64,000 nucleotides of DNA from a virus, in IMG/VR virus record IMGVR_UViG_3300035517_000183, positions 1-64,000 of that record. The stretch is one strand, 5' to 3'. The number at the start of each line of letters is the position of its first letter. Position 1 is the first letter of the stretch. Below the pieces are notes generated by a model that was given only the letters and a program-made list of their open reading frames with translations, was not told the DNA's origin and made no database searches. This document shows, piece after piece, positions 1,024 to 64,000 of this stretch. The position numbers were made by a program, and so were the translations under genes.

Positions 1024-1914
1024 ATGAATAATCAAGGATATGTAATTGTGCCAAAATTCAACGACCTTTCGCCGGCGGCACGGTTGATAGTGTCTAAATT
1101 ACCGTCAGACTACACCATGTATAACGACTATCAAAAACTCGTGGAACAACTTGCGAGCGGTGGCAGTCCGGATGATGATTCGTTGTTACTGTTGCCGATG
1201 GAGATAGTGACACGATTAGTTAACGAACTCAACCGGCGCGACCCCGGAAAATACAGCGATGTGACTTTTACGGATATGTTTCAAGCGTCGTTATATTTGC
1301 GAGGGCAAATCATTGCGAAAATCGAAGAGCGCAAGAGTAAAACAAGGGACGAGGAAACGGCTCAAAAACGGCTTGAAATTTACAAGCAAATACAATCCGA
1401 ATACCCGCGATTGCGCGTTGTGAAAACATATAAGCGCGACGGCAAGCATTTAACCGACTTAAAATTAGCCTTGGTAGGCCTTGTCGATATGGCAGAGGCT
1501 AACGAAATATGCGAAAAATACGGCGTGTCACTCGTGGAATTGTGCAAGCGCAATAGTCATAAGTGTTACGAGCGACTACGCGATTGCACATTGTCAGGCA
1601 TTGATGTTGCAAGCATATTAGGTGACGGCTATATAGCGTATACCACTGAAAGTAGTGACGGTTACAGTTATTTTGATAAAATTTTCAAGCCGCGAATTGC
1701 AAGCATTGATAACATATACGACTTGACTAAAGCGGCGACGTATTGTGTTGATATAATATCCCACTTACAGTTATTGGATGATGACACGGTGTTTATAACT
1801 CAAATGTGTAATGGCAAATACGAGTTGGTAGTTGGGGAATACCCAAAACAAGCAGTCGAATTTAGCCATGGTGGCTATGACTACGCCGTAGGGATTATCG
1901 TAGACTTGTATTAG
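1024..1914 (+). CDS. hypothetical protein
   Basis: 296-aa ORF, no recognised motifs. Confidence 0.5.
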   Translation: MNNQGYVIVPKFNDLSPAARLIVSKLPSDYTMYNDYQKLVEQLASGGSPDDDSLLLLPMEIVTRLVNELNRRDPGKYSDVTFTDMFQASLYLRGQIIAKIEERKSKTRDEETAQKRLEIYKQIQSEYPRLRVVKTYKRDGKHLTDLKLALVGLVDMAEANEICEKYGVSLVELCKRNSHKCYERLRDCTLSGIDVASILGDGYIAYTTESSDGYSYFDKIFKPRIASIDNIYDLTKAATYCVDIISHLQLLDDDTVFITQMCNGKYELVVGEYPKQAVEFSHGGYDYAVGIIVDLY

Positions 1915-4883: not shown

Positions 4884-5066
4884 TTTGGGTTAATGTTATG
4901 TTTGGTGTTACAAATGTGTTTCAAATTTAGGGTCAAATTTTTTAGACGCAATTTAGACGCAATTGATATGGTCCAAATTTGGACAAAAAAATAAAACTGC
5001 GCCAAATATTTAACACAGTTTAACTTTTGTGATTTCCGTAACTTGTTGAAAATCAGCCTATTTAAG

Positions 5067-11582: not shown

Positions 11583-12482
11583 ATGGAAACTGAAAATCAG
11601 CAAACAACAGAACAGCAGCCGACGCAAGCGCAAACGACTGTCATAGAGAAGAAAGAAACTTATACGCCCGAGCGAACAGCCGAAGCGATTAAAAAACTCC
11701 CGACGATTTTGCAGCCGATAAAAGGCTTGTTTGCTCAACCGTGGGAGTCATTCCGCAGTGCGTTTAAAGACCCCGCCGAAGCAGACCGCATAATGCAGCG
11801 CGAAGTGACGTATGCAGCACAAGCAATGACGAGTAACGGTTATTTAATAACTTGCGCTCAAAAATCGCCGCAACATTTCGTCGAAGCACTCAAAAACGTA
11901 GCACTGTCGGGGCTGTCACTTTCGCCGGTTTTAAAACAAGGCTACCTCGTACCGTTTAACGGCCTTGTATCATTCATACCCTCTTACATGGGTTTGATTG
12001 ACATACTCGTTAACGCCGGAATTGTCGCCAAAATAGAAGCACATTGTGTTTATAAGGGCGAGAATTACGAAATCTGTCACGGCACGGAAGAATATTTGCG
12101 ACACAATCCTAATTGGGAGAATCGCACGAAAGAAAATCTCGTAGGGTGCTACTGGATAGCTACGTTGTTAGATGGCACGAAAGTATTCGGCGACCTCTCG
12201 ATTGATGAAATCGAAGTCATTAGAAAACGTGCGCCGTCAGCAAAAAACAAATCTCCGTGGGATAGCGATTACACCGAAATGGCGCGTAAAACAGCCGTCC
12301 GACGTGGATTTAAAATGCTACCGAAGAAAGGAATCTCCGAGGATAAACTTAAATCGGTAGAAGCCGTTTTTGACTACGACGAGAAAGTTGTACAGTCATG
12401 GATTAAAAACCAAAAACAAGGTACTACCAAAAATGACTCGTTTGACGAAGATGAAACAGCAGATTATGAAGTAGTAGAATGA
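11583..12482 (+). CDS. recT: RecT-family single-strand annealing protein
   Basis: MARKTAVRRGFKMLP matches the RecT signature K-A-RR-K-LP. Size 299 aa and the position after the exonuclease fit. Confidence 0.7.
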   Translation: METENQQTTEQQPTQAQTTVIEKKETYTPERTAEAIKKLPTILQPIKGLFAQPWESFRSAFKDPAEADRIMQREVTYAAQAMTSNGYLITCAQKSPQHFVEALKNVALSGLSLSPVLKQGYLVPFNGLVSFIPSYMGLIDILVNAGIVAKIEAHCVYKGENYEICHGTEEYLRHNPNWENRTKENLVGCYWIATLLDGTKVFGDLSIDEIEVIRKRAPSAKNKSPWDSDYTEMARKTAVRRGFKMLPKKGISEDKLKSVEAVFDYDEKVVQSWIKNQKQGTTKNDSFDEDETADYEVVE

Positions 12483-24822: not shown

Positions 24823-24874
24823 CATGACACTCATGTATTATGATTGATTGATATTTTATAATTGGTATTGCATA

Positions 24875-24905
24875 GGGGTGACTGTGAAGTTACCCCTTTG
24901 CTTTA
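24875..24905 (+). terminator. terminator candidate at the convergent junction
   Basis: Hairpin ggggtgactgtgaagttacccc followed by tttgcttt. Confidence 0.35.
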
Positions 24906-50035: not shown

Positions 50036-52822
50036 TTGGGAATGGCGTTTAAATTTGTTAACAACAGTATTTCATTACCGAATCTATACCCGACAGTCAC
50101 TCGAAAACTCCCCACGGTTAAAGATAAAAACGGCTGGGCGCAGGTCGGTGACTTCAAGTTGCGCAACTCGGTAGACCTAATTCCGCAGCCGGGATTACAA
50201 GAGAATCTTTGTGCTTGCGAAGCAAACCTTGTATTCATTTGTGGTGCAGCCACATCAGGCAAGGCACAGCCATACGATGCAAAAGTGCTTACACCGCGCG
50301 GTTTCGTAGAGATGGGGTCGCTTCGGGTTGGCGACACAATAACCGGCTCAAACGGGAAGCCTCAAACGATATTGCGCATATTTGAGCAAGGCGAGCGGGA
50401 TGTCTGTGAGTTGAAATTCGCGGATGGCAGCGTTGTTGAGTGTGACTACGAACACTTGTGGAATGTCACAGCGACAAGGGCTAAATGTTCACACATTAAT
50501 ACAATTCTAACTACAAATCAAATAATAGAAGAGCTTAAAGGTCGTGGCGTAGATTATGGCAGTATTAGAAATATATACGTACCACTGCCCAATCCAATAG
50601 AGTTTGACTGCAACGAAAACTTGCCGCTTAGCCCATATTTGCTGGGCGCGATACTCGGTGATGGTTGCACCCGTATAAAAGATTGTAAGCCTCGAATATA
50701 CACGCCAGATACAGAGATATTAGACCGAATTAGGGCTGATGGGTACGATGTCAAACGCATCCCGTCCTCTGATTGCGGCTGGACTTTTGAAAATCACAGT
50801 GTGAAAGACTCGCTTGTAACTTTAGGACTTTGGAATTGCCTGTCTTACGACAAGTTTGTCCCGGACGCGTATTTAAAAGCGAGCGTTTACGATAGGCTTG
50901 CACTATTGCAGGGTTTATTAGATACAGACGGGAGTGTTTCATACAAGAGTTTGGCGGAGTATTCCACTTCAAGTTGCAAACTGGCAACGCAAGTCAGGGA
51001 TTTGGTGTTTTCCTTGGGTGGGTATTGTTATATGTCAGCACGAATACCCAAATATACCTACAATGGCAATAAAAAAGATGGGCATAAATCATACAGGTTG
51101 TTTATTTCATTCGCCAATCAGCAGCAAGCGTTCTCTATTAGCCGCAAAAAAGACAAATGCACGACACAGAGAAACACTCGATATTGCAACGGCAGAAGAA
51201 TAGTCGATTACAAGTATATCGGCAAAAAGCAGTGCAGGTGCTTGCTTGTGTCTAACCCCGACCACTTATACATCACTAACGATTATATTGTCACGCATAA
51301 TACTTTTGGAATGTATATGACAGCACTCTACGGCGTTGACAAAAACGGATTTACGTCTATTCTATTCTCGTTCCGCGAAAAAGATAGCAAAAAAGGCTCA
51401 TCAATCTTCCGTGACGGCGTTGAGGTGCTGGGGAAAATGAAAGGCTGTGAGTATGCCTCATCAGACAATATTAGTTTCCGTTTCCCAAAATCAAACTCGC
51501 AGTTGCAACTTGCGAATTTCAATTATAATGTTGCGAATCCCACCGAGTGGAGCGACTTCAAAGAGGATATGAAGAAAAAGCAGGCGAGCCTTATCATGGT
51601 CGACGAAGCAACGAAGATGCAAGAAAAGGCCTTGCTTTATATCTTCTCGCGTAACCGTGACGGCTCGGGAATGCAACCGCAAATGATTTGTTCTTTTAAT
51701 CCCGAAAACGAGCATTTTACTACTGACGTAATAAAAGCGGCGGGCTTTCTTGATAGCGGATGGCACGTGCGTAAAGAAATGGAGGGTAGGCTTATATATT
51801 TCTTTATGAAAGGTAAGTCGTTCAAAGATGCAGTCTGGGGATTAACACCCGAAGATGTCGCGGCTCGAGCGGGTATTGAAATCTCGCAAAAAGACCGCGA
51901 AGCAGGACTGACAGAAGCCGACATGGTTAAGTCATTCACGGTGTTTACGGGCGAGGCGTCTGAAAACAGAATCCTTGTAGCCATTACCGGCGGTCAGTCG
52001 GTTGCGAATCTATATGCTGTCGGCAAAGAGCAGAGCGACATTTTGAAACGCGCATATTTCGGCCCCATCCAAAAAGAGGATATAAACGTCAGCAAACAGA
52101 TGATTTTACAGTTATGGGAGAATCCTATTGACGACGATGAAAATATGTACGCCACATTGGACGTTTCAGGCGGTTCGCTTGAAAGTGATAATACTCCGAT
52201 GGTGATATGGCGAGGCTCGCAAGTCATTGATATTAAATTCTTCCGAGGCGACTCGAAGCAATTAGTCGATTGGATAGACGCAATGTTAAACACTTACAAT
52301 ATTCCCGTTGAGAATTTTGCATACGACGCAACGGGCATAGGTTACTATCTACGCGCTTACACTTCGGGGCGACCGATAACAGCCAATAAACGGTGCTTGC
52401 AAGAGTATGACAGCAATGGCAATCCGGTGCAAATTGACGAGTATTTTAATCTTCGCTCGCAATTACTCGGCAAAACAGAGGTCATGCTTAAAAAGGGTGA
52501 AATCTCGTTTGCTATCGACCAAAATAGCGTAATCCCCTACGGCAAAAACGGTCAGTCGCGTAGGCTTATAGATGTGCTTTCGGATGAAATAGCCGTGTTC
52601 TCTACGTCTACGCGCAACAAGAAAATATACTACCGTTCAAAGGATGAATACAAGGCAAAATACGGCTCGTCGCCCGACTTGATAGACGCCATTTCATACA
52701 AGGCCGTATTCATGCTTGACACGCGAGGCAGAAAACAGCCCGCAACAGTCAACTCTGACGAAGCTTATAACGCCCTTTGGAGTGGATATGCTCCGCGCTC
52801 GGTTGGTCGTGGATGGTGGTAG
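50036..52822 (+). CDS. terL: terminase large subunit interrupted by an intein
   Basis: Removing residues 77-422 reconstitutes the Walker A motif GAATSGK|T. A TAtaTTTG promoter element lies at 50008-50015. Confidence 0.85.
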   Translation: MGMAFKFVNNSISLPNLYPTVTRKLPTVKDKNGWAQVGDFKLRNSVDLIPQPGLQENLCACEANLVFICGAATSGKAQPYDAKVLTPRGFVEMGSLRVGDTITGSNGKPQTILRIFEQGERDVCELKFADGSVVECDYEHLWNVTATRAKCSHINTILTTNQIIEELKGRGVDYGSIRNIYVPLPNPIEFDCNENLPLSPYLLGAILGDGCTRIKDCKPRIYTPDTEILDRIRADGYDVKRIPSSDCGWTFENHSVKDSLVTLGLWNCLSYDKFVPDAYLKASVYDRLALLQGLLDTDGSVSYKSLAEYSTSSCKLATQVRDLVFSLGGYCYMSARIPKYTYNGNKKDGHKSYRLFISFANQQQAFSISRKKDKCTTQRNTRYCNGRRIVDYKYIGKKQCRCLLVSNPDHLYITNDYIVTHNTFGMYMTALYGVDKNGFTSILFSFREKDSKKGSSIFRDGVEVLGKMKGCEYASSDNISFRFPKSNSQLQLANFNYNVANPTEWSDFKEDMKKKQASLIMVDEATKMQEKALLYIFSRNRDGSGMQPQMICSFNPENEHFTTDVIKAAGFLDSGWHVRKEMEGRLIYFFMKGKSFKDAVWGLTPEDVAARAGIEISQKDREAGLTEADMVKSFTVFTGEASENRILVAITGGQSVANLYAVGKEQSDILKRAYFGPIQKEDINVSKQMILQLWENPIDDDENMYATLDVSGGSLESDNTPMVIWRGSQVIDIKFFRGDSKQLVDWIDAMLNTYNIPVENFAYDATGIGYYLRAYTSGRPITANKRCLQEYDSNGNPVQIDEYFNLRSQLLGKTEVMLKKGEISFAIDQNSVIPYGKNGQSRRLIDVLSDEIAVFSTSTRNKKIYYRSKDEYKAKYGSSPDLIDAISYKAVFMLDTRGRKQPATVNSDEAYNALWSGYAPRSVGRGWW
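50264..51301 (+). mobile_element. intein with LAGLIDADG homing-endonuclease domain (346 aa) in the terminase P-loop
   Basis: Hint N-block AQPYDAKVLTPRG...VGDTI. Two LAGLIDADG motifs (LLGAILGDG, LQGLLDTDG). C-terminal IVTHN followed by extein Thr. Unusual Ala at intein position 1. Confidence 0.8.
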
Positions 52823-52829
52823 CTAAACA

Positions 52830-54512
52830 GTGAGTTTTATAAAACAGAGAGTGAATATGTACATATCAGAACTATTAGTAAAAGATTTTTGGTATCGGCG
52901 CGTAAATGCCGACGCCGTTACAATTCCAAATCCGACAAATCCAAATGGCTATCGTCACGTGAATTTTACGGATGGAATCCGCAGACGCGCCCTTACTAAC
53001 GATGATTTTATCAACGAGTTAGAACTTACGGCGCACGAAATCAACTCGCGCTATTGGTCGACTCGTCCTATTCGCGAAATACGAGAGCGTGATGTCGTGC
53101 TTGAAGATGGCGCAAAAAAGAAAGTCAAAGAGTGGGCGGTTACAGGCTATGACGACATGGAAACAGTCCGACTCGGTTTTCAAAAGCGTTTTTCAATGGC
53201 GAAAGCGTCCTTTTTTGCGGCCAACGGCTTTAATATAAGCAACGAAACCACCGACAGCAAGAGTTATGATACTTTGATGTCATGGAAAGATATCGCAGGG
53301 CTTGACGTGGGCTTTTTCGAGTTGGTTCAGTCGTGCTTCCAAAGCGGCGACGCAGCAATCTATCTTTACCAGACCGGCAACACGATAGAATACAAGGTTT
53401 TTTCGTCACTCTATGGTGATAAACTGTATTTTCACTATGACGAGAATTTTAACCCGGTCGGCGTAAGGGAATATACGTTGCGAGGCCAACGCGCAGTCGA
53501 TATTTACCGCGTATCTTCCGTTGAAACATGGGTGCAAATCAACCCCGAGGACGAAAAGACAAAATCATGGGTAAACAAAGTCGGCGGATGGTTTGCGCGT
53601 GGTATAGACTGGCATACTTCCGCTGTTAGCGAGGATGGATGGCGCAGAATTGCTAACCGAGAGAATCAGATAGGAGACAAACTCAATCCGTTTATCTATT
53701 TCAGAATTAACGATGTTGTGTGGGGGTCGGCGCAAGAAGATATAAGCGGACTTGAACGAGCAATGAGTTATGTTGCAGAGGAAAGCAAAAACATCGCATT
53801 TCCAGATATGTTCGTCAAGGCTACTAAAATTGACAATATGCCCGCTATCGGAGCGCACGGACGCACATGGGCAGCTCGCGGAACGGCAGATGAAATAAAA
53901 GCGGCTGACGTTAAGGCGATTGAAAAACCAAACATGAGCGACATTGCCACCGTAGACCTCAAAAACCGTCTTGACAGTATTCTACGCACCACCATGAGCG
54001 TATTTATTGACCCCGAGATAGTCAAATCAAGCGATATAAGCGGCGTGGGAATTAAAGTCTTGTACGGTCCCGAAATTCAGTTTGCACAAAATATGTGGCC
54101 GCAATTCTATTCGCAACTCAAATATATGGTCGAAGTGTTTAAGGCTTTAGTTGCCAAGATAGAGAAAAACGGCGCAATCGCAACGCTGCGGACTTCTATT
54201 TGGCAAGAGATTTATCTACCCGAAGATGAAGCAGCCAAAGTAAAACTCGAACTCGACCAATTATACGCAAGAGCAAAATCGCGTAAGGCTGTCATGGCCG
54301 ACTTGAATAACCAGCATTTGGGCGACGCAGAGCAAATCATCAAAGAATGGATTGAAGAACTTGACATTAAGGCTCGCATTCCAGCCATTGCTTCCGCGGA
54401 AGTACAAGCGGAGTACGGTGAGGGCGACCAATCGGCTCAGGTTAATGATGAAATCGACCCCAATAGGCCTAATATAACAAATCAAGCCGCAGGAATCTCC
54501 GTATTGGAGTGA
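52830..54512 (+). CDS. portal protein
   Basis: 560 aa immediately downstream of terL. Confidence 0.6.
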   Translation: MSFIKQRVNMYISELLVKDFWYRRVNADAVTIPNPTNPNGYRHVNFTDGIRRRALTNDDFINELELTAHEINSRYWSTRPIREIRERDVVLEDGAKKKVKEWAVTGYDDMETVRLGFQKRFSMAKASFFAANGFNISNETTDSKSYDTLMSWKDIAGLDVGFFELVQSCFQSGDAAIYLYQTGNTIEYKVFSSLYGDKLYFHYDENFNPVGVREYTLRGQRAVDIYRVSSVETWVQINPEDEKTKSWVNKVGGWFARGIDWHTSAVSEDGWRRIANRENQIGDKLNPFIYFRINDVVWGSAQEDISGLERAMSYVAEESKNIAFPDMFVKATKIDNMPAIGAHGRTWAARGTADEIKAADVKAIEKPNMSDIATVDLKNRLDSILRTTMSVFIDPEIVKSSDISGVGIKVLYGPEIQFAQNMWPQFYSQLKYMVEVFKALVAKIEKNGAIATLRTSIWQEIYLPEDEAAKVKLELDQLYARAKSRKAVMADLNNQHLGDAEQIIKEWIEELDIKARIPAIASAEVQAEYGEGDQSAQVNDEIDPNRPNITNQAAGISVLE

Positions 54513-54533
54513 CTTGTATTACCTTGAAGGTTC

Positions 54534-54562
54534 GACTCCGTGCGTTGTGTACGGAGTTTTTT
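54534..54562 (+). terminator. rho-independent terminator (+ strand)
   Basis: gactccgt-gcgttgtgt-acggag followed by TTTTTT. Confidence 0.6.
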
Positions 54563-58697: not shown

Positions 58698-58988
58698 TTA
58701 ATAATTAGAAATGCGAGCGAGAACGCCCTGATAACGCTGATTTATAGCACGGTCGGTTTCAATCAAGCCCGTTATGCGTTTGATGGCAGCACTAATAGTA
58801 GAAACACTCTTACGACATAGTAACTTGGAAATTTCAGCCTGAGTCAAGCCCAGTTCGCGCGAAAGAATAAGCATAAGCACGTGCCGAGCTATCGTAATAC
58901 AACGTAGCCGAGAGTCACCGCATAAGGCCGTAAACGTCACGTTATACTCACTACAAATAATCTCAATGATTTGTTCTTTGGTTATCAT
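58698..58988 (-). CDS. small HTH protein resembling DnaA C-terminal domain IV
   Basis: DSRLRCITIARHVLMLILSRELGLTQAEISKLLCRKSVSTISAAIKRI matches the R-x-ARQ-AMYL-R-LT-S-IG-RDHSTV-KI pattern of the DnaA DNA-binding domain. Confidence 0.5.
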   Translation of the reverse strand: MITKEQIIEIICSEYNVTFTALCGDSRLRCITIARHVLMLILSRELGLTQAEISKLLCRKSVSTISAAIKRITGLIETDRAINQRYQGVLARISNY

Positions 58989-58993
58989 AATAT

Positions 58994-60544
58994 TTAAGCA
59001 TTTTCAATTAAATTACCCAAGTCGTCAGTGTCTATGCCGAGCCGACCGACACAGTATTCATAGCCGGCTGACATTCGGCGTATATTGCCGAGTTTAACGT
59101 CAAAGCCCTTACTTTTAAGCATATCGGCAATCTCCCGTCGGCGTTTAATCACCGTGTAGCCACACTCGTCGGCATAAGCGCGATACTCCTCATAAAGCGA
59201 GCCTAAAGAACGCCATCGAGGGTCTTTCTCACGCGGAGTTTCAACGCGCGTATAATTATACTCGCTCCACCAACAACGGCCACTGTTACTATGGTCTTGA
59301 AGTGCCCTTTGAGCGGCCAAAACATCCTCGCCGAGAATTATATTACCGCCGTTTCTAATCAACTTGCGATACCCCTCGTAAATCCACGTAAAAATATACT
59401 GACGCGCATCGTCAGTGGTTAACTTAAAAGCCAAATACGGGTCTTTATCTTTTTCGCCCCATTGATAGCTCGTAGTATAAATCCCCAACTGCCTACGGTG
59501 ATGACCCCAGCTATCATCCGACGACTCGGGAATCTCATTGGCGCAGCATAGAATAGGCGGAAAATCAACCGAAATAGGGTCGCCATAGTTTCTACGCCCT
59601 TGAAATTTCTCACCCGAAATAGCGCGTTTAAAATCACCGCCACTAATATCTTTGGCGTCTAAATCTCCAACAAGATTTATAAGCTTGCCCTGAAGTGCAG
59701 CGATATTAACCCTCGCATCAGAGTCTTTAAATAACTGTTTAAGCGAAAAATGGCTTATATATTCCTCACCGAAAACACCCGTAATGGCACTGGCTAAAAC
59801 CGACTTGCCGTTACTGCCGGGGCCGACAAGATAAGCAATATACTCAAACTTAACCTCGTTTCTATCCGCTAACAAAATGCCACAAAACATCTGAAACGCA
59901 TCGCGCATATCTTTATTGGGCAAAATCTCAGTGATTTTACGCTCCCAAAGACGAGCCGGATTATTATCATTCAAGCCATACTTGCTCGCATAGTCTTTGA
60001 CTAATACAGCCGAATCTTTACAGTCTATGTTAAGTGCAATATGCGGCTTATAATTAATGCTGAAATCCCTGACACGACCATCTTTTAAGTCAAAAACGCC
60101 GTTCTTAAAAGCAATATAGCGTTTATTAGGCCTATAAGCAAACTCATCAGAACTGGTAAGCGTATAACAACATATCTTTGCGATTTTTTCAGAAGCATTA
60201 TACTGATAATTAGACCCGACTTCAAGCAGCCTGAACGCACGGCGTATTAACTCTTGAAGAAATCTAATAGGATTTAAATTAATCTTCTCAAAATATGCGC
60301 CGTTATAAGCGTATATCGTCTGATTGTCATCGCCGACTAAAATCCTGCGCTCGGTGTCGTAGCATATAAAATTCTCAATTAACTCGGTTAATAATAATTC
60401 GCGCCACGGCTGATAAACTTTATCATACATTCCGAATCTACGCAACTCGGGATATTTGCCTTTGCTATGCGTGGCTTTATATTTGGCGGTCATGCTGTCG
60501 GCTAACCACCGCGATAAATACTCGTATGTCTTTGCAGATGTCAT
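58994..60544 (-). CDS. SF3 helicase (D5 / P4-primase C-terminal family NTPase)
   Basis: LVGPGSNGKS Walker A in the context typical of P4/D5-family replicative NTPases; 516 aa. Confidence 0.7.
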   Translation of the reverse strand: MTSAKTYEYLSRWLADSMTAKYKATHSKGKYPELRRFGMYDKVYQPWRELLLTELIENFICYDTERRILVGDDNQTIYAYNGAYFEKINLNPIRFLQELIRRAFRLLEVGSNYQYNASEKIAKICCYTLTSSDEFAYRPNKRYIAFKNGVFDLKDGRVRDFSINYKPHIALNIDCKDSAVLVKDYASKYGLNDNNPARLWERKITEILPNKDMRDAFQMFCGILLADRNEVKFEYIAYLVGPGSNGKSVLASAITGVFGEEYISHFSLKQLFKDSDARVNIAALQGKLINLVGDLDAKDISGGDFKRAISGEKFQGRRNYGDPISVDFPPILCCANEIPESSDDSWGHHRRQLGIYTTSYQWGEKDKDPYLAFKLTTDDARQYIFTWIYEGYRKLIRNGGNIILGEDVLAAQRALQDHSNSGRCWWSEYNYTRVETPREKDPRWRSLGSLYEEYRAYADECGYTVIKRRREIADMLKSKGFDVKLGNIRRMSAGYEYCVGRLGIDTDDLGNLIENA

Positions 60545-61735
60545 ATTGCAAATATACTGAAATTATTGTAATTATCAATAGAAAAAGCAAACAATAGTCT
60601 ACGTTTTTACGCGCCGTGTAACTTTAAGCCCAAAACAACCCAAAAACACACTGAAAACAACTGAAAATAGCCCGAAAACAAGCCGAAAATGTGCAAAATG
60701 TCGGATTTTTGCGGCGCGTTTCTGCACTAAACAAGCAAAATGCACTGTTATAACTTGCTGTTATTTAGTTGATTATATTATTTAGTGTAGTAGTTATATA
60801 AATTTATAATTTTATTTTCAACCCCGTCAAAGACTTATCATATATTGGTTCTATCGCGTATTTTTATCCAAAAATAATTACACTTGTACACAAAGTTAAT
60901 TAACTTGCTGTAAATTAATAAAATATAAGTGGTGTAGATTTAGTGTAGTATGCTTTAAAATACTCGTATTCTACACTAAAACAGCTATTTTGTAACAGAA
61001 ATGTAACGCGATTTTTTGAGTTGAAAAATTTTCAAAAAAAATTAAAAAAAAATTGTTGAGGGTGTAACCTACCACGTTTCGCGCGTATTTTTTTTATCCC
61101 TGCCACCCTTCGGCGCGTATCCGCCCCGCTTTTAACCGGGCGTGCCACTGTTAGATATTGAATATCACCTATTTACATATCGGTGACGGTCATCACTGAC
61201 GCGAAAATCGCTATTTTTTGGCCGTTTTTGGTTAACTCGCTGACGGTCAATATTTTAGACCCCTAAAATAAGTAATTTTCGGCGCCACCTTTTCACCCTT
61301 TTTCCCTTAAAATCTCCCGTCCTTTCTCCCTTGAAAATCACCCCGCCGGTCGTGCTGTCAGACTACCGGCCTTGAAAAATCCGGGCGCGAATACTTACCC
61401 GGGCGTTCATCGGCGGCGCCGTTGTTTTTCAGTCGTTCCGGCCGGCGGTCGCTTACAATATCGACGGCTTGCAATTTTCCGGCCGTTGGATTTTTCGTCC
61501 GGCGGTTGCATCGCGTTCCCGGCCGGGTCGGCCCCGGTTGGCCGTGTTTTTAGTCGACGGCGCCGGCGGTTTTTGGCTCAACTTTGACCGGTGAAACGGC
61601 GTATTTGTGTTAACACTTTTTAAGGCAAATGACTGTAAAATAATTGCTTAAAAATTTGCATGGATTTTGAAAAATCCGTAACTTAGTAGTGTTGAAAGAA
61701 ACATTAATAACTAACTAATAAAAACTCAAAGAAAA
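60545..61735. promoter_or_regulatory. 1.2-kb non-coding region: candidate origin/regulatory hub
   Basis: Seven A-tracts phased at ~10.5 bp (60631-60699). TTTAGTGTAG three times (60781, 60939, inverted at 60971). Palindrome TTGAAAAaTTTTCAA (61021-61035). TGACGGTCA twice. TCCCTT(A/G)AAAATC twice. Three GC-rich repeats TTTTTnGTC...CCGGCGGT (61426-61575). Confidence 0.45.
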
Positions 61736-62008
61736 ATGGAAACTAACAAATTAATCTACACAACTCCCTGTAACGTAACTTTCGCGCTTGAGGCTCAAAC
61801 TGTTTCGCTTAAGGCGTCCGGGTTTACATTGATTTACGACAACGACCGGAATATCCTTAACGCCATTATCGAAAGTAGCGACACAACTATTTGGGTATTA
61901 AATCAAATAGACGGAATACTCGGTGCATCGGTCAATCACGCCACTGGAAAATCTCACATCGTAACACTACGTGGTAACATTGAGCTTATCGGAATTGAAA
62001 ATTGCTAA
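61736..62008 (+). CDS. hypothetical protein
   Basis: 90-aa ORF. Confidence 0.35.
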   Translation: METNKLIYTTPCNVTFALEAQTVSLKASGFTLIYDNDRNILNAIIESSDTTIWVLNQIDGILGASVNHATGKSHIVTLRGNIELIGIENC

Positions 62009-62678: not shown

Positions 62679-64000
62679 ATGAAACTTACAAAACTTTACA
62701 TCAGTGGTGTTAAACCTAATGGCGGCGTCTACAACAACAAAATATCGGCGTATTACGTTGATGGAAACGACCAAACATGGCTACTACACAACATCAAAGA
62801 CTTTAACGCCGGCACGGCGCCGCTTAATAAGCGCGGGTATTTGTTTAGCACTTACGTCGGTGAAACGAAATCACCGGCCGACGTCGAACGCTTTTTTGAG
62901 CAATACTACGGCGCCATGGAATTTAATTGGGAAGGCTCCCAAAAATACGCCGAAATCGACGCGGCCAAAAGTGCATACCGTAAAACCGCTACTGCTCCCG
63001 TGGCTACTGTTTTGGCGGCGCCGACTACTACGACTGTAACGAGTTCCGCCCCCGCTTCGACCCCGGCGGCCGTTACATCTGCAATTGATACGGCCGTAGT
63101 CGATGAACCTCAACCGACTATCAGCACGACGGCACCGGCGGCGCCGGTCAAATCTACTGACCCCAATCTCAATCAACTTATAAATCTACTTTTCGGCGGA
63201 ATGAAAAGCGAGATGATAGACGAGTGTGTTAACCGTGTACTACCGACAGTCAAGGAAATAGCGGCGGCGAATGTTATCAAAAAAGAATACACTATCAAGA
63301 CTGACGAGGGTACCCGAGTGCTTCCGGCTGATACGTACCACAACGATTTTGATTTTGTACTTAACGTTGTACGGGCGGGCGTTAACGTGTACCTATACGG
63401 CCCCGCCGGCACCGGCAAAACTCACATGGCACGTCAGATTGCTAACATTTTGTGCGAAGATTTCTATTACGTAGGATGCGTATATAACCCCTACGAGTTG
63501 TTAGGGACTCAGGACATTCACGGAAACTACGTACCTACTGAATTTTACAGGGCTTTCGCTTTCGGCGGTCGTTGCTTTTTTGACGAAATAGACACTTACG
63601 CCGCCGAGTGTATGAAATGTCTAAGTGCTGCACTTTCCAACGGCTACTGTGTTTTCCCGGTTATCGGCCGCGTCGAAATGCATCCTAATTTCAAGCCTAT
63701 GGCGGCGGCTAATACTTTAGGTTTGGGGCGCGACCGTGACTATGTGGCGGCGCAACGACTTGACGCCTCAACGCTTGACCGATTCCCGGCGCGCATCTAC
63801 ATCGACTACGACGAGGAGTTAGAGTCGGCCATGGCAGACAGTCAGATTACTAACTTTATTCACGATTTACGTAAATCGGCCGCGACTCGTGAAATTAAGA
63901 TTAGGCTTTCGATGCGAGTCATCAAGGCGATGCAGGCGTATCGTAGTGCGGGTATTGCTGACGAAAAAGCCGTTGAACAAATACTATTCGCCGGTATTAG
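62679..64000 (+). CDS. AAA+ ATPase, AAA_5 (MoxR/McrB-like) family, 5'-partial (runs off the window)
   Basis: Manual translation from ATG 62679 is open to the window end. Walker A YLYGPAGTGKTHMARQIA, Walker B CFFDEIDTY, an N-terminal ~100-aa domain and a Thr/Pro/Ala-rich linker. Not in the ORF track because no stop falls inside the window. Confidence 0.7.
   Translation, partial: MKLTKLYISGVKPNGGVYNNKISAYYVDGNDQTWLLHNIKDFNAGTAPLNKRGYLFSTYVGETKSPADVERFFEQYYGAMEFNWEGSQKYAEIDAAKSAYRKTATAPVATVLAAPTTTTVTSSAPASTPAAVTSAIDTAVVDEPQPTISTTAPAAPVKSTDPNLNQLINLLFGGMKSEMIDECVNRVLPTVKEIAAANVIKKEYTIKTDEGTRVLPADTYHNDFDFVLNVVRAGVNVYLYGPAGTGKTHMARQIANILCEDFYYVGCVYNPYELLGTQDIHGNYVPTEFYRAFAFGGRCFFDEIDTYAAECMKCLSAALSNGYCVFPVIGRVEMHPNFKPMAAANTLGLGRDRDYVAAQRLDASTLDRFPARIYIDYDEELESAMADSQITNFIHDLRKSAATREIKIRLSMRVIKAMQAYRSAGIADEKAVEQILFAGI

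Follow-up and report, generated by a model that had tools for sequence, protein, structure and literature searches.

A gene-free early control region with a candidate replication origin and a conserved non-coding element in a temperate Bacteroidales phage

We analyzed a stretch of 64,000 nt of viral DNA (positions 1 to 64,000 of the IMG/VR virus record IMGVR_UViG_3300035517_000183, hereafter the window), in which a gene-free gap of 1.2 kb at 60545-61735 is a control region that separates two divergent early operons in the genome of a temperate Bacteroidales phage. The gap holds promoter boxes for the leftward operon, which starts with a helicase gene, together with operator-like palindromes, a bent A-tract array, the weakest DNA of the window with its repeats, and an oriented conserved element that is called the core in what follows. 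Overall, these components are best explained, if tentatively, as an early control region in which the AT-rich repeat segment acts as a replication origin and the core as an accessory module.

A preliminary description of the window had singled out the gap as free of genes in a packed genome, with phased A-tracts, palindromes and a GC-rich, iteron-like triple repeat, and had read it as an origin with divergent promoters between replication genes or, possibly, as a packaging site; taken together, its observation is confirmed and its interpretation is supported in part. Neither the lists of open reading frames (ORFs) nor the gene calls on the same DNA in the Logan assembly (contig L001) place a credible ORF within 60545-61735, a divergent intergenic region on which the gene calls are empty, and its repeats and compositional extremes are far above chance. 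The features that bear on an origin or on promoters are the following:

60632-60698, + strand: seven phased A4-5 tracts spaced by 9-12 nt (mean 10.5), with a predicted intrinsic bend
60760-61059, no strand: the most AT-rich 300 bp of the window (23% GC), a candidate unwinding and promoter zone
60722-60731: CTGCACTAAA, a variant of TTTAGTGTAG
60781-60790, + strand: TTTAGTGTAG copy 1, which includes TACTACAC on the - strand
60939-60948, + strand: TTTAGTGTAG copy 2
60971-60980, - strand: TTTAGTGTAG copy 3, inverted and pairing with copy 2 as a palindrome with 13-nt arms
60887-60912, no strand: spacerless 26-bp palindrome, TACACAAAGTTAA followed by TTAACTTGCTGTA, with 13-nt arms (60887-60899 and 60900-60912) that are 85% complementary
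60898-60891, - strand: perfect -7 box TAACTTTG, within the 26-bp palindrome
60876-60869, - strand: perfect -7 box TATTTTTG
60556-60549, - strand: perfect -7 box TATATTTG, ending 4 nt before the helicase ATG
61270-61263, - strand: weak 7/8 match to the -7 box, TATTTTAG, read from the sequence 162 nt upstream of the core
61184-61192 and 61241-61249, no strand: two TGACGGTCA palindromes, matching a GACCGT block that is conserved upstream of the core in relatives
61661-61678, no strand: palindrome GGATTTTGAAAAATCC

The phase score of the A-tract array (6.61) is the highest of the whole window, compared with a maximum of 4.71 in 30 locally shuffled windows, and Tandem Repeats Finder (TRF) reports periods of 10-11 and 21 at the same place, so that the bent DNA of the preliminary description is borne out. 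The AT-rich segment overlaps with the 100-bp duplex of lowest stability in the window (60746-60845). All three copies of TTTAGTGTAG found in 64 kb are inside the gap (two direct, one inverted), and the arms of the palindrome formed by two of them (60939-60951 and 60968-60980) are 92% complementary. The sequence TAACTTGCTGT is present twice, once at 60751, and one of its copies is half of the 26-bp palindrome. In addition, four of the six window copies of AAAAATCC are clustered in the gap, at 60703-10 (-), 61375-82 (+), 61488-95 (-) and 61670-77 (+), the last of them carried by the palindrome GGATTTTGAAAAATCC. The palindromes of the preliminary description are confirmed.

The -7 promoter box of Bacteroidetes has the consensus TAnnTTTG, and matches to this box are referred to as candidate promoters. 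All three perfect boxes of the gap are on the minus strand, which is the helicase strand, and there are none on the plus strand. The position of TATATTTG suggests that a helicase mRNA started from it would be leaderless or nearly so, and the 26-bp palindrome that overlaps TAACTTTG may be an operator.

The core is a previously uncatalogued non-coding element of about 115 nt in the window, located on the minus strand, where its parts were placed by a profile match and family alignments:

61036-61151, - strand: conserved core
61108 to 61095, - strand: core box A, GGGTGGCAGGGATA
ending at 61059, - strand: core box B, which closes with GGTTACACCCT
61052 to 61044, - strand: T9 run of the core

The family was found through the loci of helicase homologues, followed by pattern scans and a profile search, and it now comprises about 20 distinct contigs of viral, metagenomic or metagenome-assembled genome (MAG) origin. 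Its consensus reads (GTAAC-N4-CTGAA) ... TAAA-CCCC-GCAAA-GGGGTG-S-C-R-GGGGTA, then ~26 variable nt, then GGGTGCGACCCT-G-AAAAATTTTTTT; A5T7 follows GGGTGCGACCCT, and YTCAA-N4-TY comes next in most members. The window copy is a divergent but genuine member, because a profile built without it finds exactly one site in the window, at 61130-61041 (-), with E = 7e-6. Across 22 sequences, ACCC follows the first G-run at a distance of 46±1 nt (range 44-47) and the A/T junction follows it at 57±1 nt (range 54-58), while the sequence in between varies freely. The GGGGT-type half-sites, at about 0, +10 and +42 nt, are on one face of the helix. Boxes A and B are nearly invariant, although the helicases of the same loci share just 40-60% identity.

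In the mapped phage loci the core occupies the intergenic space between divergent genes, in front of the operon to which the helicase homologue belongs. Where such a homologue was identified, it points the same way as the core and lies 0.4-11.7 kb downstream of it. The helicase is the first gene past the core in the window and in contigs L007 and L012, and it follows within ~2 kb in L013, L015 and L072. The 330 nt past the core are AT-rich and hold TGTAG/CTACA repeats (TACTACAY / RTGTAGTA) in both orientations, which are enriched about five-fold over 18 loci (44 observed vs 8.3 expected, P = 2.5e-18). No reading frame is open or conserved across the core in the relatives. When ten relatives were compared with Rfam at the gathering threshold, and three at E<=1, nothing was found at the core; in GenBank phages and PLSDB plasmids the core of relatives is absent, apart from one chance match (E = 0.5), and a full-text literature search did not find the element. 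The DNA of the gap itself has no detectable similarity in GenBank phages or PLSDB plasmids, no tRNA was found in it, and against Rfam 15 it gave chance matches only (E>=0.07), among them a Histone3 hairpin at the 61661-61678 palindrome.

One member of the family has another context. Contig L087, a plasmid-like IMG/VR contig of 16.8 kb that encodes ParA, a resolvase, AAA_25 and DUF6371 and no SF3 helicase, carries two direct copies of the core (1830-1908 and 11782-11853, both on the plus strand), one of which fills a 122-nt gap between convergent genes, while the other is 225 nt upstream of the resolvase gene.

Several other observations were made in these loci. In L067, a Pistol self-cleaving ribozyme (RF02679, 47.9 bits, with a gathering score of 34.5) is at 1739-1809 (-), among the leftward genes and ~1.5 kb from the core. 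In L051, L056, L062 and L067 the first leftward gene, ~550-740 nt upstream of the core, encodes a small conserved protein (59-62 aa) for which two membrane helices are predicted, with the motif …LIALILATMAATVSV…FASL…D.YA.VAILK…; in several relatives this gene is the first of the operon that diverges from the early one. L003 (a Bacteroidales MAG) and L004 (a MAG labelled Candidatus Bathyarchaeota) apparently contain the same phage locus, with identical length, ORF map and match statistics, which is probably due to a binning contaminant. Two further identities for the core were tried and rejected: it is not a G-quadruplex, as the window, L012 and L013 do not have four G-runs, and inspection by eye found no -12 or -33/-7 elements at the distance needed for a sigma-54 promoter or for an UP-element with a core promoter.

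Next to the SF3 helicase gene, the AT-rich segment with its repeats is a candidate replication origin, about which we are slightly more doubtful than confident. An origin is reasonable because bent and least stable DNA is found next to the helicase gene and repeats of the TACTACAC/TGTAG type recur at the equivalent place in relatives. The gap directly abuts the ATG of this presumable initiator gene (60544), 60760-61059 provides an AT-rich segment that should unwind easily, and TTTAGTGTAG, with its three copies and a variant, provides at least three clustered short repeats, which are candidate iterons. Binding of the TACTACAC-type repeats by the helicase, or by a protein that works with it, would in such an origin open the weak DNA next to them, and the core, with its G-box, 46-nt spacing, GGGTGCGACCCT, A5T7 and YTCAA-N4-TY, would act as an accessory module that depends on a host factor. 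The partner of the core is probably either a host factor or the transcript itself: if the core is transcribed from an upstream promoter, it could activate initiation, serve to prime it, or insulate the early units from each other. The GC island in the right part of the gap, described below, would protect the rightward operon by its terminator-like hairpins.

A number of results weigh against an origin at this place. DnaA boxes are not enriched, with a single 8/9 match in the gap (60864) and 17 in the window compared with 14.8 expected. The minimum of the cumulative GC skew, ~1.3-2.5 kb from the gap, would in itself speak for an origin here, but the skew was rejected as an origin signal, being confounded by gene orientation (the plus-strand block of terminase and portal has positive skew inside a minus-strand region). 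Of the proposed origin with divergent promoters, then, the divergent operons and the three -7 boxes on the helicase strand hold and the origin is plausible, with no support from DnaA boxes or skew. In relatives, what is conserved keeps its place in front of the early operon and not next to the helicase gene, which can be as far as 11.7 kb away. Moreover, in 11 of 17 loci the core is preceded, at 177-348 nt, by a perfect -7 box in the forward direction (expected ~0.1 per locus; at -178 in L051), eight loci have a reverse -7 box at about -417 to -447, and the first gene of the mapped loci starts 360-850 nt downstream of the core. Because of the upstream box and the distant first gene, the equivalent region of the relatives is probably a long 5' leader, and the segment may be just that; this comes close to the scenario of a region transcribed into a single long 5' untranslated region, which the preliminary description had named as the refutation of its own proposal. 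That the core is nearly invariant next to helicases that have diverged so far is more easily explained by a host partner or an RNA than by a binding site of the helicase. The element L087 also argues against a helicase-specific site, because it carries two copies without an SF3 helicase, and the place between convergent genes is an unlikely one for an origin. Finally, the palindromes over the -7 boxes look equally like operators.

The same evidence can be read as a purely transcriptional region with the origin elsewhere, which is doubtful in itself, though nearly as likely as the origin. The core, transcribed from a promoter 170-350 nt upstream, would then act as RNA in the early leader, as a cis-acting attenuator, an antitermination element, an insulator or the 3' domain of a non-coding RNA of ~220-300 nt, and an early regulator would use the TACTACAC repeats and the palindromes as its operators. 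The upstream boxes and long leaders of the relatives favor this explanation, and so does the fact that the core keeps one orientation with respect to the helicase operon in every phage locus found. In the window, by comparison, the perfect boxes are downstream of the core, with merely the 7/8 box upstream of it. As regards RNA structure, the first G-run of some members pairs with differing upstream arms, i.e., ACCCC/GGGGT, GCCAC/GTGGC (L067), GGCAC/GTGCC (L007) and GCACC/GGTGC (L065), the pairing in L056 and L062 includes G-U pairs, and by eye most core spacers could fold as a hairpin from unrelated sequences; a 68-nt core window has a mean folding z-score of -1.04, negative in 81% of the sequences. 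However, RNAalifold finds just 9 pairs on the core (-5.3 kcal/mol, covariation term 0.03), single sequences of the core fold no better than shuffles (z from -1.7 to +1.0), and the spacers alone give a mean z of -0.44. The register of the upstream hairpin shifts among members, the hairpin is absent in L010, L013 and L015, such pairings are lacking in the most divergent members, and the core matches no Rfam family. One L087 copy is located between convergent gene ends, where a stop of transcription is expected, and the ribozyme of L067 shows that small RNAs do occur in such regions; on the other hand, the T-run of the core is 7 nt from the nearest hairpin, with UGAAAAA in between, unlike in the canonical terminators of the phage.

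It is also conceivable, although rather unlikely, that the core represents a class of cis-acting nucleic-acid elements that is new for the mobile elements of Bacteroidales, either as a structured leader RNA (e.g., for processive antitermination or self-processing) or as a G-rich transcript that stays hybridized to the DNA and from which replication is primed into the AT-rich segment.

Alternatively, the core might be a DNA-level site for a conserved host factor that is common to different Bacteroidales mobile elements and not specific to the helicase, e.g., a priming or primosome-assembly signal, a module bent by an IHF/HU-like nucleoid protein, or a recombination/resolution site; we regard this explanation as distinctly unlikely. 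The near-invariant boxes A and B, with their strict 46±1 nt spacing across a variable spacer, point in this direction, as do the phasing of the half-sites (about 10 and 42 nt) and the A5T7 tract with YTCAA-N4-TY after it; the spacing, the half-sites and the latter two motifs fit a DNA-protein complex equally well, and A5T7/YTCAA-N4-TY resembles the IHF consensus, WATCAANNNNTTR. A resolvase gene near one of the two direct copies in the helicase-less L087 and a serine recombinase encoded by the window phage (1944-2699) are further points in favor; yet L087 is the sole context without a helicase that was found, the resolvase of the window is 5 kb from the core, no resolvase is near the core in the relatives' loci examined, and no candidate binding protein was identified. 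The core is, furthermore, intact inside contigs longer than 100 kb (L005, L057, L061 and L062), so it is not an attP.

A cos/pac packaging site, which the preliminary description had considered, is very improbable; in such a site the GC-rich box would be cut and the A-tracts would bend the DNA for terminase assembly. Bent DNA and a GC-rich conserved box do occur together, four contigs end within about 500 nt of the core, and GGGCGGGTGCGACCCT loosely resembles, in an alignment that needs gaps, the lambda cohesive end GGGCGGCGACCT, but the large terminase and portal genes are 6-11 kb away with early genes in between, the contig ends are scattered (27 nt after the core; 9, 146 and 502 nt before it), the core heads early operons in all relatives, and the helicase-less L087 carries two copies. 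Reading genome termini from these contig ends was rejected, since their positions disagree, and ends near the core fit breaks of the assembly graph at a shared repeat. An attP at the core was likewise rejected: L005, a scaffold of 201 kb, and L062, a contig of 161 kb, carry the core and the operons on either side of it without interruption. An unbroken core is also present in L057 (107 kb) and L061 (110 kb), and the integrase of the window is ~8 kb from the gap. An immunity switch was discarded as well: the first leftward gene of the relatives encodes the two-helix membrane protein and no repressor, and the helix-turn-helix (HTH) regulator and integrase of the window are ~8 kb away.

The right part of the gap differs from the AT-rich segment in composition and contains the remaining features:

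61297-61343, + strand: C/T-rich tandem repeat with a 24-nt unit in 1.9 copies
61345-61600, + strand: GC island (~63% GC), holding a CCGGCGGTTG-like motif four times and hairpin plus T5 sites
61372-61587, + strand: Arg-rich ORF of 71 aa with a TTG start, judged non-coding

The stretch 61345-61544 (63% GC) is among the most GC-rich of the window. The ORF has no Pfam match and is not called in L001, in line with its earlier dismissal as an artefact. The triple repeat of the preliminary description is real, TTCCGGCCG being present in three copies spaced by 41/40 nt; as for its iteron-like nature, four copies of a CCGGCGGTTG-like 10-mer (61442, 61479, 61499 and 61563; matched in 0 of 300 dinucleotide shuffles) describe the island better, and BLAST, alignment and exact-pattern comparisons gave no match to the repeat or the island in relatives. 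A scan for terminator-like hairpins followed by T5 returned six matches in the region (2.2±1.7 expected), five of them on the plus strand within 61402-61551, where predictions overlap at two hairpin regions (61402-61429 and 61519-61551), and two further such sites were noticed by eye. GC-rich hairpins with a T-run directly after them, as in intrinsic terminators, are thus present in the island, which is best read as a set of hairpin plus T-run terminator-like structures; a structured RNA was rejected, as its folding z-scores (-1.4 and -0.4) are not significant. The island may be a lineage-specific insertion of foreign GC-rich DNA, because it is bracketed by an exact 12-nt direct repeat, TTGAAAAATCCG (61372-61383 and 61667-61678), or else this pair may represent two of the four clustered AAAAATCC sites.

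Canonical intrinsic terminators of the phage were observed on the plus strand at a convergent junction (24866-24900) and after the portal gene (54530-54560), and they have the T-run immediately after the stem. The one near 24.87 kb, AGGGGTGAC…GTTACCCCTTTGC, resembles box A of the core in its GGGGTG / ACCCCTTTGC flavor.

The window is a rotated, nearly complete circular genome of a phage of ~64.8 kb, as Logan contig L001 (SRR11794475) overruns the window end and re-enters its start. Between the two, 810 nt are missing from the window (L001:4966-5775), in which the AAA_5 gene ends and DUF7192 starts. The same helicase is present on a contig of 64,959 bp from the Joint Genome Institute (JGI). L001 stops at window position 4965, just past the integrase, where an attP or a strain-variable boundary is possible. 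The start of the window carries the integrase, the HTH regulator and the serine recombinase, in keeping with a temperate phage, and the relatives of the helicase derive from Bacteroidales, Muribaculaceae and Alistipes assemblies. The genes referred to above are:

58994-60544, - strand: SF3/P4-family helicase (D5_N and DUF5906; Pfam and PHROG matches), gene 1 of the leftward replication operon
58698-58988, - strand: small predicted DNA-binding protein of 96 aa with DnaA domain IV (Bac_DnaA_C, Pfam E = 1.3e-12)
61736-62008, + strand: gene 1 of the rightward operon, 90 aa, no family (ORF lists, Pfam/PHROG scans and Logan gene calls)
50036-52822, + strand: large terminase
52830-54512: portal

The start of the helicase was kept at ATG 60544 because the N-terminus is conserved among its 161 homologues, which commonly share 40-60% identity with it. 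It matches TIGR01613 with E = 2e-17, which is below the curated cutoff of that model, and a search of solved structures with its profile found no PDB relative by sequence. No primase is recognizable in the phage beside this helicase. The match of the DnaA domain-IV protein to TIGR00362 (DnaA) is confined to the C-terminal part, and no homologue of this protein was found in the relatives searched; a DUF1064 nuclease-like protein is encoded further downstream in the leftward operon. On the right side of the gap, three small ORFs on the plus strand are followed by an AAA_5 ATPase (start at 62679) and DUF7192. Of the replication genes that had been described on both flanks, those on the left are borne out; the AAA_5 ATPase on the right is of the MoxR/CobS type and not a recognized replication gene. 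The large terminase is unusually long (928 aa) and has a faint LAGLIDADG_3 match in the precomputed annotation, so it may contain an intein or a homing endonuclease.

Origins and early-gene control are essentially uncharacterized in temperate phages of gut Bacteroidales, including those of Muribaculaceae and Alistipes. The region as a whole falls into an ordinary category, that of a phage early control region and probable origin, and the new part is the uncatalogued conserved element; what is gained is a defined element of ~70-115 nt with fixed internal spacing and a reproducible genomic position. If the core marks an origin or a control point that depends on a host factor, it would aid the annotation of this phage group, offer a handle for Bacteroidales replicons or controllable expression, and serve as a sequence tag for finding such prophages. 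If the gap is merely a promoter-leader region, the finding is ordinary.

Iteron-type origins are found beside the gene of their initiator, for instance in lambda (ori), P4 (ori/crr with the alpha primase-helicase), SaPI (ori with Rep) and IncQ plasmids (oriV). Like these, the gap is repeat-dense, non-coding and located next to the gene of a P4-family SF3 helicase, it has short repeats in two orientations within or flanking its weakest, AT-rich DNA, and it has intrinsic bends. A GC-rich block adjoins an AT-rich one as in the IncQ oriV, and promoters overlap palindromes as in autoregulated rep genes. Unlike these origins, the gap lacks a cluster of DnaA boxes, and the core is far more conserved than the helicase, is also found in a helicase-less element, and belongs to a region that in relatives can be 11.7 kb from the helicase. 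With intrinsic terminators or insulators the gap shares GC-island hairpins directly before T5 on the plus strand, a core that ends in T7-9, and a core copy between convergent genes in L087; in the core, however, UGAAAAA separates the T-run from the nearest hairpin. Early operons of phages can also be controlled by leader RNAs, as in lambda nut (boxA/boxB), HK022 put and the P4 immunity leader with its CI RNA. In contrast to lambda nut and its like, there is one core per phage and not one per early operon, and no N-like gene follows; the register of the core hairpin is not conserved, its covariation is not significant, and no Rfam match at E<=1, including to phage regulatory RNAs, was obtained. 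As in the nut, put and P4 leaders, on the other hand, the core of most relatives is probably located in a long untranslated leader past an early promoter, at the head of a long early operon with a P4-family helicase, and many of its members have a 15-nt hairpin, ACCCC-GCAAA-GGGGT, whose purine-rich pentaloop is reminiscent of lambda boxB. A primer transcript at the core, if there is one, would find its counterparts in the origins of ColE1, T4 and the mitochondrial conserved sequence block II (CSBII).

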